Of a DNA stretch of 64,000 nt, positions 1-52,315 are shown one piece after another. The notes under the pieces are model-generated. The model had not been told where the DNA came from, ran no database searches, and saw only the letters and a program-made list of their open reading frames with translations. How positions within the stretch are numbered: the first letter of the stretch is position 1; each line of letters starts with the position of its first letter. The stretch is from Mobula birostris. Taxonomy: Eukaryota. The stretch covers positions 60,188,935 through 60,252,934 of the forward strand of contig NC_092376.1 in NCBI RefSeq assembly GCF_030028105.1, in the 5' to 3' direction. The position numbers and the translations under genes are program-made.

Positions 1-202
1 ACCTCAGAACTCATCTTGCAAACGGCTGCTCACAGGCACATGGTAAAGCAATGCTGGCGAGAATGCAGTTCCGAATCCAGGGGAGAGCAGCTGCTCAGAG
101 TGCGCGGCGCGCTGCCTTATATCGCGCGCTGATTTTTTTCATAACAGTGGAAACACCTTCTGAAAGTGAAAACAGGGTACTAATGTAGGTCTTTCGTAAC
201 AG

Positions 203-2749
203 AAACAGGAATTCTGCAGATGCCAGAAATTCAAGCAACACACATAAAAGTTGCTGGTGAACGCAGCAGGCCAGGCAACATCTGTAGGAAGAGGTGCAGT
301 CGACGTTTCAGGCCCAGACCCTTCGTCAGGACTAACTGAAGGAAGAGTGAGTAAGGGATTTGAAAGTTGGAGGGGGAGGGGGAGATCCAAAATGATAGGA
401 GAAGACAGGAGGGGGAGGGATGGAGCCAAGAGCTGGACAGGTGATAGGCAAAAGGGATATGAGAGGATCATGGGACAGGAGGTCCAGGAAGAAAGACGGG
501 GGGGAGGGGACCCAGAGGATGGGCAAGGGGTATATTCAGAGGGACAGAGGGAGAAAAAGGAGAGTGAGAAAGAATGTGTGTATAAAAATAAGTAACAGAT
601 GGAGTACAAGGGGGAGGTGGGCATTAGCGGAAGTTAGAGAAGTCGATGTTCATGCCATCAGGTTGGAGGCTACCCAGACGGAATATAAGGTGTTGTTCCT
701 CCAACCTGAGTGTGGCTTCATCTTTACAGCAGAGGAGGCCGTGGATAGACATGTCAGAATGGGAATGGGATGTGGAATTAAAATGTGTGGCCACTGGGAG
801 ATCCTGCTTTCTCTGGCGGACAGAGCATAGATGTTCAGCAAAGCGGTCTCCCAGTCTGCGTCGGGTCTCGCCAATATATAAAAGGCCACATCGGGAGCAC
901 CGGACGCAGTATATCACCCCAGTCGACTCACAGGTGAAGTGTTGCCTCACCTGGAAGGACTGTTTGGGGCCCTGAATGGTGGTAAGGGAGGAAGTGTAAG
1001 GGCATGTGTAGCACTTGTTCCGCTTACACGGATAAGTGCCAGGAGGGAGATCAGTGGGGAGGGATGGGGGGGACGAATGGACAAGGGAGTTGCGTAGGGA
1101 GCGATCCCTGCAGAATGCGGGGGGGGGGGGGAGGGAAAGATGTGCTTAGTAGTGGGATCCCGTTGGAGATGGCGGAAGTTACGGAGAATAATATGTTGGA
1201 CCCGGAGGCTGGTGGGGTGGTAGGTGAGGACCAGGGGAACCCTATTTCTAGTGGGGTGGCGGGAGGATGGAGTGAGAGCAGATGTACGTGAAATGGGGGA
1301 GATGCGTTTAAGAGCAGAGTTGATAGTGGAGGAAGGGAAGCCCCTTTCTTTAAAAAAGGAAGACATCTCCCTCGTCCTAGAATGAAAAGCCTCATCCTGA
1401 GAGCAGATGCGGCAGAGATGGAGGAATTGCGAGAAGGGGATGGCGTTTTTGCAAGAGACAGGGTGAGAAGAGGAATAGTCCAGACAGCTGTGAGAGTCAG
1501 TAGGCTTATAGTAGACATCAGTGGATAAGCTGTCTACAGAGACAGAAAGATCTAGAAAGGGGAGGGAGGTGTCGGAAATGGACCAGGTAAACTTGAGGGC
1601 AGGCTGAAAGTTGGAGGCAGAGTTAATAAAGTCAACGAGTTCTGCATGCTTGCAGGAAGCAGTGCCAATGCAGTCGTCTATGTAGCGAAAGAAAAGGTGG
1701 GGACAGATACCAGAATAGGCACGGAACATAGATTGTTCCACAAAGCCAACAAAAAGGCAGGCATAGCTAGGACCCATACGGGTGCCCATAGCTACACCTT
1801 TAGTTTGGAGGAAGTGGGAGGTGCCAAAGGAGAAATTATTAAGAGTAAGGACTAATTCCGCTAGACGGAGCAGAGTGGTGGTAGAGGGGAACTGATTAGG
1901 TCTGGAATCCAAAAAGAAGCGTAGAGCTTTGAGACCTTCCTGATGGGGGATGGAAGTATATAGGGACTGGACATCCATGGTGAAAATAAAGCGGTGGGGG
2001 CCAGGGAACTTAAAATCATCGAAAAGTTTAAGAGCGTGAGAAGTGTCATGAACATAGGTCGGAAGAGATTGAACAAGGGGGATAAAACCTTGTCGAGGTA
2101 TGCAGAAACGAGTTCGGTGGGGCAGGAGCAAGCTGAGACAATAGGTCGGCCAGGACAGGCAGGTTTGTGGATCTTGGGTAGGAGATAGAAACAGGAAGTG
2201 CGAGGTGTGGGAACTATAAGGTTGGTAGCAGTGGATGGGAGATCCTCTGAGCGGATAAAGTCGGTGATGGTGTGGGAGACAATGGCCTGGTGCTCCTTAG
2301 TGGGGTCACGATCGAGGGGTAAATAAGAGGAGGTATCCGCAAGTTGTCGCTGTGCCTCGGCAAGGTAGAGGTCAGTACACCAGACTACAACAACTGGTTT
2401 AATAATAAGGTTAGGATTAGTGCGGAGGGAGTGGAGAGCAGAGTGTTCCGAAGGAGTGAGGTTGGAATGGGGACAAGGTGCGGTGAAGTCGAGACGGTTG
2501 ATGTCCCGTCAGCAGTTAGCGATAAAGAGATCCAGAGCAGGCAGAAGACCAGAGTGGGGTGTCCATGAAGCAGAGGAGGGTTGAAGATGGGAGAAGGGGT
2601 CATCGGTGGGGGTGGAAGAGTCCTTACCGAAGAAGTAGGCTCGGAGACGGAGACGGTGGAAGAAAAGTTCCGCATCATGGCGAACACGGAACTCGCTGAG
2701 GTGTGGGCGAAGGGGGACAAACGTGAGGCCCTTACTGAGGACAGAGCGT
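203..2749 (-). mobile_element. Penelope-like retroelement (Neptune type), left arm of an inverted dimer; 5'-truncated, full 3' tail
   Basis: ORF 947..2131 has PLE RT motifs (FTMDVQSLYTSIP, QTKGVAMGTRMGPSYA, RYIDD). ORF 624..950 is a GIY-YIG endonuclease (VIYCVRCSRCGLLYIGET...RFAEH...EEQHLI...GMN). The two are separated by a frameshift at the G-run near 1119-1131. Confidence 0.93.
298..333 (-). ncRNA. Minimal type I hammerhead ribozyme (PLE-associated), intact core
   Basis: Minus strand reads AGUC-CUGACGA-AGGGUCUGGGCCU-GAAAC-GUC-GACU. This gives both conserved core boxes, stem I AGUC/GACU, a stem II hairpin and a GUC cleavage triplet. Confidence 0.8.
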
Positions 2750-5421
2750 CCCCTCAGAGGCTCCATCTTCCTCTCACCCCAACCCTCCCCTCTCCATTGA
2801 CACCCCCAGCCTCCCCCCTCCCCCCTCTGATCCCAGCGCTCATTCGTGCCGGGTCTTTACCATCCCCTCCGACCTTCAACTGTCGGAGGCAGAACGCTCT
2901 GTCCTCAGTAAGGGCCTCACGTTTGTCCCCCTTCGCCCACACCTCAGCGAGTTCCGTGTTCGCCATGATGCGGAACTTTTCTTCCGCCGTCTCCGAGCCT
3001 ACTTCTTCGGTAAGGACTCTTCCACCCCCACCGATGACCCCTTCTCCCATCTTCAACCCTCCTCTTCTTCATGGACACCCCACTCTGGTCTTCTGCCTGC
3101 TCTGGATCCCTTTATTGCTAACTGCCGACAGGACATCAACCGTCTCGACTTCACCGCACCTTGTCCCCATTCCAACCTCACTCCTTCGGAACGCTCTGCT
3201 CTCCACTCCCTCCGCACTAATCCTAACCTTATTATTAAACCCGCCGATAAGGGGGGTGCTGTTGTAGTCTGGCGTACTGACCTCTACCTTGCCGAGGCAC
3301 AGCGACAACTCGCGGATACCTCCTCTTATTTACCCCCCGATCGTGACCCCACTAAGGAGCACCAGGCCATTGTCTCCCACACCATCACCGACTTTATCCG
3401 CTCAGGGGATCTCCCATCCACTGCTACCAACCTTATAGTTCCCACACCTCGCACTTCCTGTTTCTATCTCCTACCCAAGATCCACAAACCTGCCTGTCCT
3501 GGCCGACCTATTGTCTCAGCTTGCTCCTGCCCCACCAAACTCGTTTCTGCATACCTCGACACGGTTTTATCACCCCTTGTTCAATCTCTTCCGACCTATG
3601 TTCGTGACACTTCTCACGCTCTTAAACTTTTCGATGATTTTAAGTTCCCTGGCCCCCACCGCTTTATTTTCACCATGGATGTCCAGTCCTTATGTACTTC
3701 CATCCCCCATCAGGAAGGTCTCAAAGCTCTACACTTCTTTTTGGATTCCAGACCTAATCAGTTCCCCTCTACCACCACTCTGCTCCGTCTAGCGGAATAA
3801 GTCCTTACTCTTAATAATTTCTCCTTTGGCTCCTCCCACTTCCTCCAAACTAAAGGTGTAGCTATGGGCACCCGTATGGGTCCTAGCTATGCCTGCCTTT
3901 TTGTTGGCTTTGTGGAACAATCTATGTTTCATGCCTATTCTGGTATCTGTCCTCCATTTTTCCTTCGCTACATCGACGACTGCATTGGCGCTGCTTCCTG
4001 CACGCATGCAGAACTCGTTGACTTTATTAACTTTGCCTCCAACTTTCACCCTGCCCTCAAGTTTACCTGGTCCATTTCCGACACCTCCCTCCCCTTTCTA
4101 GATCTTTCCGTCTCTGTCTCTGGAGACAGCTTATCCACTGATGTCTACTATAAGCCTACTGACTCTCACAGCTATCTGGACTATTCCTCTTCTCACCCTG
4201 TCTCTTGCAAAATCGCCATCCCCTTCTCGCAATTCCTCCGTCTCCGCCGCATCTACTCTCAGGATGAGGCTTTTCATTCTAGGATGAGGGAGATGTCTTC
4301 CTTTTTTAAAGAAAGGGGCTTCCCTTCCTCCACTATCAACTCTGCTCTTAAACGCATCTCCCCCATTTCACGTACATCTGCTCTCACTCCATCCTCCCAT
4401 CACCCCACTAGGAATAGGGTTCCCCTGGTCCTCACCTACCACCCCACCAGCCTCCGGGTCCAACATATTATTCTCTGTAATTTCCGCCACCTCCAATGGG
4501 ATCCCACCACTAAGCACATCTTTCCCTCCCCCCCCCCCCCCGCATTCTGCAGGGATCGCTCCCTACGCAACTCCCTTGTCCATTCGTCCCCCCCATCCCT
4601 CCCCACTGATCTCCCTCCTGGCACTTATCTGTGTAAGCGGAACAAGTGCTACACATGCCCTTACACTTCCTCCCTTACCACCATTCAGGGCCCCAAACAG
4701 TCCTTCCAGGTGAGGCAACACTTCACCTGTGAGTCAACTGGGGTGATATACTGCGTCCGGTGCTCCCGATGTGGCCTTGTATATATTGGCGAGACCCGAC
4801 GCAGAATGGGAGACCGCTTTGCTGAACATCTACACTCTGTCCGCCAGAGAAAGCAGGATCTCCCAGTGGCCACACATTTTAATTCCACATCCCATTCCCA
4901 TTCTGACATGTCTATCCACGGCCTCCTCTATTGTAAAGATGAAGCCACACTCAGGTTGGAGGAACAACACCTTATATTCCGTCTGGGTAGCCTCCAACCT
5001 GATGGCATGAACATCGACTTCTCTAACTTCCGCTACTGCCCACCTCCCCCTCGTACCCCATCTGTTACTTATTTTTATACACACATTCTTTCTCTCACTC
5101 TCCTTTTTCTCCCTCTGAATATACCCCTTGCCCATCCTCTGGGTCCCCTCCCCCCTTGTCTTTCTTCCCGGACCTCCTGTCCCATGATCCTCTCATATCC
5201 CTTTTGCCTATCACCTGTCCAGCTCTTGGCTCCATCCCTCCCCCTCCTGTCTTCTCCTATCATTTTGGATCTCCCCCTCCCCCTCCAACTTTCAAATCCC
5301 TTACTCACTCTTCCTTCAGTTAGTCCTGACGAAGGGTCTCGGCCTGAAACGTCGACTGCACCTCTTCCAACAGATGCTGCCTGGCCTGCTGCGTTCACCA
5401 GCAACTTTTATGTGTGTTGCT
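2750..5421 (+). mobile_element. Penelope-like retroelement (Neptune type), right arm of the inverted dimer
   Basis: ORF 3864..5447 contains the RT C-terminal half (YIDD), the Cys linker CKRNKCYTC and GIY-YIG. There is an upstream in-frame stop at about 3798-3800. The native stop has changed to TAC near 5034, which extends the ORF through the 3' UTR. Confidence 0.93.
5322..5357 (+). ncRNA. Minimal type I hammerhead ribozyme (PLE-associated), intact core, predicted cleavage after 5353
   Basis: AGTC(5322-25) CTGACGA(5326-32) AGGGTCTCGGCCT(5333-45) GAAAC(5346-50) GTC(5351-53) GACT(5354-57). Confidence 0.8.
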
Positions 5422-6405
5422 TCTTTCGTAACAGTGAGGTTTTGTAAAGCGAACGTTCGAAAAGCGGGGGACACTTGTACTGATGTGACATTCTGTTTTC
5501 AGTAGTGCAACTCCTCCACCTCTTTTACACATCCCACCATCACATCTAAAACAATGAAACCCAGGACTGTTGAGCTGCTAGTCCTGTCCTTAACAAAATC
5601 ACATTTCTAAAAGTTTTGTCTTAAATTATGTCTGTATACTCAACCCACTGTATACCCAGATTATAAATATACATCTACCAGCCACTAGAGAACATAGTAC
5701 TTACTTTGAGTTTGATACCATTTCCACCATTCTTTGTGGTTATGAAACTGATAACAAAAGTTTGTTGCCAAAGTTGCTTATCAAATGCACCCCCTCAAAC
5801 ATTGAGAGCATATAGTTTTCCAAGTGCTAATTCATGTATACTGTGCTTCATATAAAGTAAATGTTTTCATATTTGCATATATGCACACAGATACAATGTT
5901 AATCATTGATTTATTTAATGTCTCATTATTAATTATGGCTTAATACTCTTCCTAAGAGATTTATACAGGTGGTATACAGTGGACAACAGGAAGTACACAT
6001 TTTATAAAACTGGTGGGGTGGGAGAACCTTACTCCCCTCACCCCAATCCTTCAATGTTTTCCTTACCAAAAGTATTGATTTCAAGATTCAAGCACTTATC
6101 CAACATCTTTCCTGACCTCAAAGTCCTAAAATGAATTCCATCCACTTAAAGCATTCTGATTTCTTCCTTACCAATATATCTATACAAGATCTGCTTATAA
6201 ACCAATCGACATAAGACAATTGATGTGAAAGAAAACTAAGACAAGGTTCCGATATAAAACAGGTCTGTCAAGTAACAAAAAAAATTGACCACATTTGTGC
6301 AGCTCTGCAAGATGTTTATACCATCTAAGGAAGACTGCAGTTTAACAGGTAGTTAATAAATCTCATTTATATGCAGGATATAAAAAGTGGAAACCATGCT
6401 CTCAC

Positions 6406-6489
6406 CTTTGCTGGAATACGAGATTTTGTAAACTTCAATCGTTTGAATCCAGGCCATGGTGATAGAACAGCTTTTATTTCCACTAAGTT
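6406..6489 (-). CDS. MRPL30: Mitochondrial ribosomal protein L30, coding exon 2
   Basis: Splice context is tttttccag|exon|gtgag, 84 nt, phase 0. It translates to NLVEIKAVLSPWPGFKRLKFTKSRIPAK, matching the MRPL30 KFT(K/R)SRIP motif. Its head-to-head position with MITD1 is as in human. Confidence 0.85.
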
Positions 6490-7954
6490 CTGGAAAAACA
6501 AAGTAAGTTTTGAAGTAATTAATTTACTTCATGCAACAAATGAAATGTAATGTTAGCTTCCTGGGGTCCATGGAACATTCCAAATAAATGGAAGTCACAG
6601 AAGTAAGTGGTTGACAAATTGCCTTAATTTTAAATAGAAGGTGGATAATATCAACCACAGTTAAAATTTTTTAAATTTAAATGTTTGAAATAATAGTATT
6701 CGGTCCCATCCAGCTCAGTAGCCATGATCTGATATCTGATCCAGTAAATCAAGAGAATGATTGTAGGAAAATTGGCAATGGATTACATGGAGGCGAATGT
6801 CTGAAACCTGAATGTGTTTCATACCTGCCACTTGTGTACAATGATAATTACCAATTATTGATCCCCAAATACCACTCTCACAACTGATTCTTCAATGTGT
6901 TCAGGAAAGTTTTCTTAAGAAATATGTAGCTAGAAGTGAGACTGGGCAAGTGCTAAAGTGTTGGTAGGAAAGTGTTCATTCTGGGACTAGTGAACATAAT
7001 TTTTAGTTTTAGAACAGTTATAGAAAAAAAATACTGTTCCCACGCAATCTAGCTCTATGCGCATCATCTCAGTATTATGTAAATCCCTTTGCTAGATTGC
7101 CTCTATTCTGATTCATGGAGTTCTGCCTGACATTTCATTACGAACCCTTGCTTGTGACACTTAAAACATTTTGCAGCACTGTACTGATGAGCTTGAGCCA
7201 AGTGGTTCCAATGTCAACAAAGCCATTTGTGAATGCAAGAAAACAATATTGTTAATAGAAATAGAACCACTCAATTGTTTGACAATTGAAAAATTATAAC
7301 AGGGTTTCAACCATTCCCATTTGTGCATATACAACCCAGACTCCCATGTTGGAGTTCTTATCATTTTACCTGCTGTTGGTCTTTGAACCACATTTACTAA
7401 TCAAAACTCCCTCAGTTTTCCAATTTTTTTCATAAATGTTGCTATCCTGCACAATCATTTGAATATTAAATTATGCAGGTTTGGTAATTTAGCCATTGGT
7501 CCACAAATTAACCTCCTTCTCAGATAACTCTATCAAAAAATATATGCCAATGACAGGTTTTTCATATCACCATCTCCCCAATATTTGAGCAAAATTCCTA
7601 CACTTAATTCTTCACAAATTTTTTAAGTAGCTTTGGAATTTGTTTAATATTTCAATAAGTGTATGACAATAAAATGCAATTGTGTGCTTGAATGTCCAAC
7701 AAGATCATTTTCCTACATTCACAAGTGGCTTCATGAGCAGCATCTTGCCCTTCTGTTAATAATGTCGTTTGCTGGCTTATGACTCCAAATTTCATGGCTC
7801 TATGTTCTTTACTACCTCATTCTCGGAACTTGAGAAGGCCATACGTTTTCTGTGGATACTTAACATACAACTAAAACCCAAGCACCTGATACCCAGGCAG
7901 TTCAAAAGCTGGTGGTAGAGATCCAATACCCAACAAAAACGTGTAATATCAAAT

Positions 7955-8142
7955 CACAAACAACAGAAAATCTGCAGATGCTGGAAATCCGAGCAACACA
8001 CACAAAATGCTGGAGGAACTGAGCAGGCCAGGTAGCACCTATGGAAAAAAAAGGACTCCTGCCGAAGGGTTCTGGCCCAAAATGTCGACTGCATTTTTTC
8101 CATAGATGCTGCCGAGTTCCTCCAGTATTCTGTGTATGTTGC
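7955..8142. mobile_element. Short inverted PLE-derived insertion with a degenerate hammerhead
   Basis: A minus arm with tail (AACAGAAAATCTGCAGATGCTGG...) is followed by a plus arm CTGCCGAAGGGTTCTGGCCCAAAATGTCGACT...TGTTGC. Confidence 0.75.
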
Positions 8143-44979: not shown

Positions 44980-46246
44980 CTGACTCTCACAGCTATCTGG
45001 ACTATTCCTCTTCTCACCCTGTCTCTTGCAAAAACGCCATCCCCTTCTCGCAATTCCTCCGTCTCCGCCGCATCTGCTCTCAGGATGAGGCTTTTCATTC
45101 TAGGACGAGGGAGATGTCTTCCTTTTTTAAAGAAAAGGGCTTCCCTTCCTCCACTATCAACTCTGCTCTTAAACGCATCTCCCCCATTTCACGTACATCT
45201 GCTCTCACTCCATCCTCCCACCACCCCTCTAGGAATAGGGTTCCCCTGGTCCTCACCTACCACCCCGCCAGCCTCCGGGTCCAACATATTATTCTCCGTA
45301 ACTTCCGCCACCTCCAACGGGATCCCACCACTAAGCACATCTTTCCCTCCCCCCGCCTCTGCATTCCGCAGGGATCGCTCCCTACACAGCTCCCTTGTCC
45401 ATTCGTCCCCCTCATCCCTCCCCACTGATCTCCCTCCTGGCACTTATCCGCGTAAGCGGAACAAGCGCTACACATGCCCTTACACTTCCTCCCTTACCAC
45501 CATTCAGGGCCCCAAACAGTCCTTCCAGGTGAGGCAACACTTCACCTGTGAGTCGACTGGGGTGATATACTGCGTCCGGTGCTCCCGATGTGGCCTTTTA
45601 TATATTGGCGAGACCCAACGCAGACTGGGAGACCGCTTTACTGAACATCTATGCTCTGTCCGCCAGAGAAAGCAGGATCTCCCAGTGGCCACACATTTTA
45701 ATTCCACATCCCATTCCCATTCTGACATGTCTATCCACGGCCTCCTCTACTGTAAAGATGAAGCCACACTCAGGTTGGAGGAACAACACCTTATATTCCG
45801 TCTGGGTAGCCTCCAACCTGACGGCATGAACATCGACTTCTCTAACTTCCGCTAGGCCCCACCTCCCCCTCGTACCCCATCTGTTACTTATTTTTATGCA
45901 CACATTCTTTCTCTCACTCTCCTTTTTCTCCCTCTGTCCCTCTGAATATACCTCTTGCCCATCCTCTGGGTCCCCCCCCCTTGTCTTTCTTCTCGGACCT
46001 CCTGTTCCATGATCCTCTCATATCCCCTTTTGCCAATCACCTGTCCAGCTCTTGGCTCCATCCCTCCCCCTCCTGTCTTCTCCTATCATTTTGGATCTCC
46101 CCCTCCCCCTCCAACTTTCAAATCCCTTACTCACTCTTCCTTCAGTTAGTCCTGACGAAGGGTCTCGGCCTGAAACATCGACTGCACCTCTTCCTAGAGA
46201 TGCTGCCTGGCCTGCTGCGTTCACCAGCAACTTTGATGTGTGTTGC
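44980..46246 (+). mobile_element. Young 5'-truncated Penelope-like element (same family as 203-5421)
   Basis: RT thumb plus GIY-YIG (ORFs 44943..45428 and 44947..45855); ends at TGTGTTGC. Flanks AAGGAATCTGA (44973-83) and AGGGAATCTGA (46247-57). Confidence 0.9.
46148..46183 (+). ncRNA. Minimal hammerhead ribozyme variant (AUC triplet)
   Basis: AGTC CTGACGA AGGGTCTCGGCCT GAAAC ATC GACT. Confidence 0.7.
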
Positions 46247-51333: not shown

Positions 51334-52315
51334 TGCAAACATGAGGAAATCTGCAGATGCTGGAAATTCGAGCAACACACACAGCATCCATAAGAAAAAA
51401 ACACAGTCGACATTTCGGGCCGAGACCCTTTATCAGGATTAACTGAAGTCTAGTGTGATATACTGCGTCCAGTGCTCCTGGTGCGGCCTTCTATACATTG
51501 GTGTCACCTGTGAGTCAGCTGGTGTGATATATTGCGTCCGGTCCTCCCGCTGCAGCCTCCTATATATTGGTATCACCTGTGAGTCGGCTGGTGTGATATA
51601 CTGCGTCTGGTGCTCCCTTCTATATATTGGGGAGACCCGACGCAGACTAGGAGACTGTTTTGCTGAACACCTACGCTCCTGTCTCCCAGAGAAAGCAGGA
51701 TCTCCCAGTGACCACACATTTTATTTCCACGTCCCATTCCCATTCTGATATGTCAATCCATGGCCTCCTCAACTGTCAAAATGAAGTCACACTCAGGTTG
51801 GAGGAACAACACCTTATATTCTGTCTGGGTAGCCTCCAACCTGATGGCATGAACATTGACCTCTCTAACTTCCGTTAATGCCCCTCCTCCCCTTCTTACC
51901 CCATTTCTTATTTATTTATTTATTTATCTATCTATCTATCTATTAATTAATTAATTAATTCCCCCTTTTTTTCTCTCTCTGTCCCTCTCACAATAACTCC
52001 TTGCCTGCTGTCCATCTTCCTCTGGTGCTCCCCTCCACCCTTCTCTCTCCCTAGGCCTCCCATCCCATGATCCTCTCCCTTCTCCAGCCTTGCATCCCTT
52101 TTGCCAATCGACTTTCCAGCTCTTAGCTCCATCCCTCCTCCTCCTGTCTTCTCCTGTCATTTCGGATCTCCCCCCCCCACTCCCACTTTCAAATCTCTAA
52201 CTATCTCTTCTTTCAGTTAGTCCTGACAAAGGGTCTCAGCCCGAAACGTCGACTGTGTTTTTTCCTATGGATGCTGTCTGGCCTGCTGCGTTCCACCAGT
52301 ATTTTGTGTGTGTTG
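51334..52315. mobile_element. Inverted PLE insertion within the Gypsy RT
   Basis: Perfect 14-bp TSD ATGTCATTAACAAG (51320-33, 52316-29). A short tailed minus arm (51334-51448) precedes a plus arm with GIY-YIG remnants that ends TGTGTTG. Hammerhead variants at about 51405-51440 (-) and 52219-52254 (+). Confidence 0.9.

Follow-up and report, generated by a model that had tools for sequence, protein, structure and literature searches.

The window analysed here, a stretch of 64,000 nt of the 4.0-Gb Mobula birostris assembly (G000:C8:60188935 onward), carries near its start two copies of a Penelope-like retroelement (PLE) lying head to head in an intron, and this raises the question of whether they arrived in one integration and, if so, by what route. 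An earlier note, made from the sequence alone, had described inverted arms of about 2.5 kb, a perfect 13-bp target site duplication (TSD) around the whole unit, an extra tail on the left arm only, and deletions and a stop-to-TAC change that distinguish the arms. We aligned the arms locally (233-2749, minus strand, against 2894-5422, plus strand) and recovered all of these features. The arms are 97.4% identical (K2P 0.026) over 2,503 columns, with 2,439 matches, 64 substitutions (46 transitions, 22 of them at CpG, and 18 transversions) and 8 indels; the differences include a 6-nt gap near 1546, a 15-nt gap at 2395 and a TAA-to-TAC change at 5036. The unit, 5,219 nt in total with a mirrored length of 2.5 kb, is a dead head-to-head pair of 5'-truncated PLE copies in one TSD (Table 1).

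Table 1. Features at the locus (window positions) and pairs of dimers on C1 that have an inversion junction in common (distance).
Feature	Position or distance	Strand or orientation	Remarks
Older 1.6-kb host repeat, left part	1-189		80-87% identity to L071-L090; starts ~1.35 kb before the window
Left TSD copy, 13 nt	190-202		occurs once per empty site of the host repeat (2,514 sites)
Left-arm tail, about 30 nt	204-232	-	matches the family's pLTR/5' read-through
Left arm, 5'-truncated PLE copy	233-2749	-	reference positions 1022-3569; RT and GIY-YIG coding, frameshifts
Hammerhead-like motif, left pLTR end	298-333	-	by inspection; no Rfam match
Inversion junction	2750		one base continuing neither arm; no microhomology
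Right-arm 5' extension (the earlier note's spacer)	2751-2893	+	family sequence
Right arm, mirrored part, 5'-truncated PLE copy	2894-5421	+	stop at 3798-3800; tail absent
Hammerhead-like motif	5322-5358	+	CTGACGA at 5326, GAAACGTC at 5346, short palindromic stem III; by inspection
Right TSD copy, 13 nt	5422-5434		first base also compatible with the element end
Older host repeat, right terminus	5435-5480		TA-CA.. end
Host-gene exon, MRPL30-like, upstream of insertion	6406-6489	-	next exon about 4 kb before the window
Twin pair L193/L195	156 kb apart	opposite
Twin pair L194/L196	391 kb apart	opposite
Twin pair L192 (=L218)/L217	373 kb apart	same

What had been taken for a separate 144-bp spacer proved to be family sequence that continues the right arm 5'-ward, as 40 of 40 scored genome matches span 2750-2893 plus the following 67 nt; a separate spacer element was therefore rejected. 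We mapped both arms on L049, a natural near-full-length copy with a unit of about 3.52 kb, on which the left arm covers 1022-3598 (tail included) and the right arm 880-3569. The arms are unequal, with the tail on the left only and 143 nt of extra 5' sequence on the right, and base 203 fits neither family nor target. A genome search allowing up to 3 mismatches returned the central junction a single time, and we found no stem at it. This uniqueness rules out a dispersed palindromic subfamily, and a TIR DNA transposon or foldback element was rejected on the same ground and because the arms are RT-coding copies of variable length. Both arms had been said to encode RT and GIY-YIG; the sequence is indeed coding-derived, but neither protein is intact, the right arm having a stop codon and lacking ~253 N-terminal codons, the left arm having frameshifts and lacking ~300. 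Pfam searches of left-arm frames gave RVT_1 (E 8e-6, below cut-off) and GIY-YIG (E 9e-5), and two right-arm frames gave no match at 0.001. As far as tested, the unit plays no role of its own in the intron.

The integration site lies within an older repeat of ~1.6 kb that the earlier note did not mention. We searched the genome for the uninterrupted target, in which the 13-mer stands once, and found 2,514 occurrences at up to 2 mismatches (control 0). Because these empty sites of the host repeat, used here in place of the orthologous empty site, hold a single 13-mer, the 13-nt duplication (TCTTTCGTAACAG) is a true TSD. The host repeat (found also from L070:8090 onward) is present at least 2,514 times, ends in imperfect inverted termini flanked by TA, contains an inverted repeat of 230-250 nt and is likely a non-autonomous DNA transposon. 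Another copy of it contains a 193-nt mini-palindrome of two pLTR ends (L071:1066-1257). The insertion does lie in an intron, as proposed; the gene is on the minus strand, and two downstream exons match Ribosomal_L30 weakly (E 0.0013 and 0.0075; below cut-off); a search for the first coding exon of the gene found none. The gene is likely MRPL30, a name that also draws on motifs of that protein. Four runs (X1, X5, X9 and X11) were checked on 5000-6500. The unique right flank is present identically in X1 contigs (from 5453) and with 14 differences in X5 contigs (from 5457), and in both runs the contigs break inside repeats.

The family itself is best read in copy L060, whose open frame of 1,114 codons holds RT motifs, a CX4CxxC linker and a CCHH-type GIY-YIG domain. 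In the available text of PMC8557442 (Craig et al. 2021), EN+ PLEs are defined by features that we found in this family: a single ORF with RT and C-terminal GIY-YIG (in L060, broken in the window arms; GVIYCVRCSRCGLLYIG..EH..THF in the family protein), partial tandems forming pLTRs (in L035, L037, L045, L047, L049 and L065, not at this locus), and an optional 30-40-nt tail, an inverted 5'-truncated neighbour and a variable TSD. The same text defines Neptune/Nematis by a CX2-5CxxC linker with CCHH and Penelope/Poseidon by a linker without CX2-5CxxC; the linker here reads CKRNKCYTC, which gives the former combination and departs from the latter. Judged by these motifs, the family is of Neptune/Nematis type and not strict Penelope/Poseidon. 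Neptune is presumably the better choice than Nematis, which is a guess on our part. By inspection, a minimal putative hammerhead-like motif lies near each 3' end (core motifs at 5326-5353), and an Rfam search gave no hammerhead match; minimal hammerhead-like motifs are described in the available part of PMC6765202.

The family is dense, with 40,071 exact genome matches to an 18-mer near the 3' end and 1,517 to an 18-mer 2.5 kb upstream. In several copies (L067, L121, L132, L138 and L149) the ORF breaks off and the sequence resumes in a short 3' piece with its start near reference position 3469, where the hammerhead-like motif has its upstream edge; many short copies start at this point too. 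Within the Pro/Ser-rich N-terminal region of the ORF, an in-frame tandem duplication of 212 nt (L049 positions 759-970) differs in copy number between copies, e.g. L042, L060, L096 and L129. Further pieces of the same or an older related PLE family lie in the window at 7962-8000, about 45900-46200 and 52100-52300 (minus strand).

Arms from different subfamilies with separate TSDs had been named as the sign of two independent insertions. We found the opposite, one TSD and arms closer to each other than to any other copy compared (rank 1 of 108; 132 background copies), which argues for one event. Compared with 36 other copies, 23 non-majority letters are common to both arms, 3 of them non-CpG and private, and the differences number 37 in the left arm only and 29 in the right arm only. 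Across 43 dimers, 24 rare non-CpG variants are shared, versus 1.5 expected. With the true TSD and the unique junction, it is well supported that one integration event lies behind both arms, most of the ORF having been copied twice in opposite orientation, as the earlier note had it. One RNA, or two RNAs of one donor, could each account for the shared variants, as could later arm-to-arm conversion; the differences are evenly distributed (longest identical run 171 nt, simulated median 160), and we rejected long conversion tracts between these arms. The suggestion that arm divergence might date the insertion as it does for LTRs survives in reduced form. About 1.3% per arm is reasonable as a rough relative age at this locus only, since among the 43 dimers the arm-to-arm rank, in the top tenth for 20, falls in the lower half for 8, whose arms are no closer than random copies, and some dimers show signs of later copying. 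The arms are compatible with a datable pair here, but fail to be so, or are so doubtfully, in other dimers.

To place this unit among its relatives, we used three samples. Set A comprised the 39 best matches to the spacer sequence, of which 7 had an inverted partner. Set B comprised the first 100 matches listed of the upstream 18-mer on C1 (99 analysable); 34 of these, about a third, had an adjacent inverted piece, or 32 once a segmental triplicate was collapsed, and the inverted arm exceeded 1 kb in 10/32. Total lengths reached 5,217 nt (L165), 5,069 nt (L127) and 4,998 nt (L177), and no pair among the first 100 listed had both arms reaching the upstream 18-mer. The mirrored length of 2.5 kb at this locus is the extreme of the sample, the next being 2.17 kb (L177), and represents the long tail of a continuum. 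Set C comprised the first 100 3'-end matches listed on C1, in which all 15 neighbours within 4 kb stood head to head (15/15); 14 were dimers, and L200 was excluded as a pair of insertions, each with its own TSD. Scaling up from 28 of the first 100 ends (one 7.3-Mb stretch) gives a likely genome total of several thousand such dimers. The triplicate mentioned above (L108, L109 and L110; G000:C1:35.28-35.37 Mb) is one dimer that recurs, flanks included, as three segmental tandem copies spaced 43 kb apart. The structure is thus not the unusual one that had been supposed: the unit is a real single event but an ordinary one, with a published PLE architecture that is common in this genome.

We counted tails by hand in the 48 dimers with both 3' ends (7 from set A, 26 from set B, 14 from set C and this locus), leaving out those with one 3' end missing (L103, L131, L134, L174 and L176), duplicates (L109, L110 and L185) and the chance pair L200. 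Exactly one tail was present in 46/48, two tails in none and no tail in 2 (L124 and L182). Independent ends would yield one tail in at most 50% of dimers (P about 4e-12); among solo copies, 20/55 are tailed and 35/55 tail-less. The tail sits on the 5'-shorter arm in 27/46 dimers, this locus included, and on the 5'-longer arm in 19/46. As here, each arm holds sequence absent from the other in L094, L120 and L187. TSDs, mostly 12-16 nt, were found in 42/48 dimers (one by eye with a mismatch), versus at most 7 nt in a control of 56 pairs of mismatched flanks; none was found in the tail-less L124 and L182.

The earlier note had offered two routes, a fold-back or priming on both target strands, and the second now stands in front. 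We consider it probable that both-strand priming on one staggered cut built the unit. The GIY-YIG domain would nick the two target strands 13 nt apart and each 3'-OH would prime a cDNA, one at the RNA start site at the tail end and the other ~33 nt upstream; both cDNAs would stop early, at about 2.55 and 2.67 kb, and their free ends would be joined bluntly with one extra base and then filled in. The near-strict one-tail rule suggests that the two primings use both sites of one RNA junction, probably via an RT dimer. In the available text of PMC11167929, a Poseidon PLE protein, predicted to be a dimer, cuts and extends both strands in vitro, with two RT start sites bracketing the tail. These in vitro data come from another clade and, in that text, show no complete insertion, which counts against both-strand priming, as do the 8 of 43 dimers with arms in the lower half of ranks and the two dimers with neither arm tailed.

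An unlikely alternative is that a tail-primed cDNA folded and was copied back, the endonuclease resolving the second end at the tail-less site, with a central deletion later on. Such a fold-back would account for the one-tail rule as well as for the shared variants. The available parts of PMC3846280 and PMC8557442 put forward self-priming and resolution by the endonuclease, and some junctions have tiny spacers (about 20 nt in L199). The tail counts nevertheless favour both-strand priming, because a tail on the 5'-shorter arm, as here, would oblige a fold-back to undergo an extra deletion, of up to about 2.9 kb (L107). Since each arm at this locus holds sequence missing from the other, a simple fold-back is disfavoured; the stemless junction and the frequency of tail-less ends among solo copies also speak against it. 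Deletion at the palindrome centre could, all the same, be another source of the 5' asymmetry. Still less likely is twin priming on a tandem RNA, with the second strand priming at the upstream unit's pLTR/tail as L1 does internally. Partial tandems exist in the family (L035, L045, L047, L049 and L065) and donor variants would be common to both arms, but each junction would offer both start sites, so that the one-tail rule is not predicted, and most dimers fall far below one 3.5-kb unit. Two independent insertions at one spot, homogenised afterwards, are very improbable and already largely refuted: the family is dense enough for chance pairs such as L200, but a single TSD encloses both arms with none at the junction, neighbours in set C are always head to head, and the even spread of differences speaks against homogenisation. 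An assembly artefact from fold-back reads is scarcely credible, given the 64 substitutions and 8 indels, ends that differ by the tail and a biological TSD; that none of the listed contigs of X1, X5, X6 and X9 crosses the junction is uninformative.

Three pairs of dimers on C1 (3.10-4.35 Mb; Table 1) share their exact inversion junction, each junction occurring exactly twice in the genome. Their TSDs differ, only old repeats are common to their flanks, and two of the pairs carry their tails on opposite arms; the shared junctions suggest later DNA-level copying. The two members of L192/L217 have rare variants in common close to the centre and their arms differ by about 4-6% overall, fitting a centre copied from a neighbour. 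We also searched six junctions for which no twin had been seen beforehand (this locus, L192, L198, L199, L204 and L205) and found one near twin, one 30-nt stub on C29 and four with none. The stub belongs to a short tailed copy (L223:2495-2808, G000:C29) with a junction like that of L199 and no TSD found. No twins were seen among 32 long dimers over 188 Mb, so the phenomenon is possibly regional. We tentatively raise the possibility, doubtful as it is, that PLE dimers are built by a single RT dimer using the two start sites of one RNA junction and that a dimer's centre may derive, by copying in cis, from a neighbouring dimer. If true, this would amount to template-assisted completion of integration or to palindrome-centre repair, neither of which turned up in our literature searches.

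The locus itself, a dead intronic copy with a published layout, matters little. As a class, the dimers are numerous enough for testing PLE integration, and the one-tail rule ties a signature known from genomes to the pair of RT start sites observed in vitro, while the twin junctions advise caution in dating dimers by arm divergence without a check for copying. Tail asymmetry may, reportedly, already have been given in more detail by Arkhipova in 2006, and the supplementary figures on PAc might already describe it more fully. In L1 twin priming, both target strands prime and an inverted 5' part results within one TSD; there, two non-overlapping pieces of one RNA are copied, whereas here both copies start from the 3' end and overlap almost fully. 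In the available text on PAc, an Anolis Poseidon element (Frangieh et al. 2024, PMC11167929), two RT start sites bracket the tail and both strands are cut and extended, as is proposed here, and a hammerhead lies near the junction (a hammerhead-like motif by inspection here); PAc belongs to another clade, the Mobula family having the CX4CxxC linker, and the tail of the Mobula family is placed upstream of the first ATG rather than within the ORF. Closer in layout is Pen2a_Av/Pen2 of Adineta vaga (Arkhipova et al. 2013, PMC3846280), for which the available text gives inverted pLTRs, one of them with a 31-bp tail, a single TSD of 9-10 bp enclosing the unit and head-to-head as the most frequent arrangement; the inverted part is about 180-210 bp there, and its authors favour self-priming, whereas the junction here has no stem. 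In our searches, counts of the one-tail rule or kilobase arms were found nowhere beyond the layout in the available parts of PMC8557442 and PMC3846280; in the former, arm lengths and counts are absent, whereas here the inverted copy is 2.5 kb and a single tail was counted in 46/48. The closest likeness is to the EN+ PLE insertion units of PMC8557442, described in its available text with 5'-truncated copies, an adjoining inverted 5'-truncated copy, a C-terminal GIY-YIG with CCHH and a 30-40-nt tail that is often at one end only.
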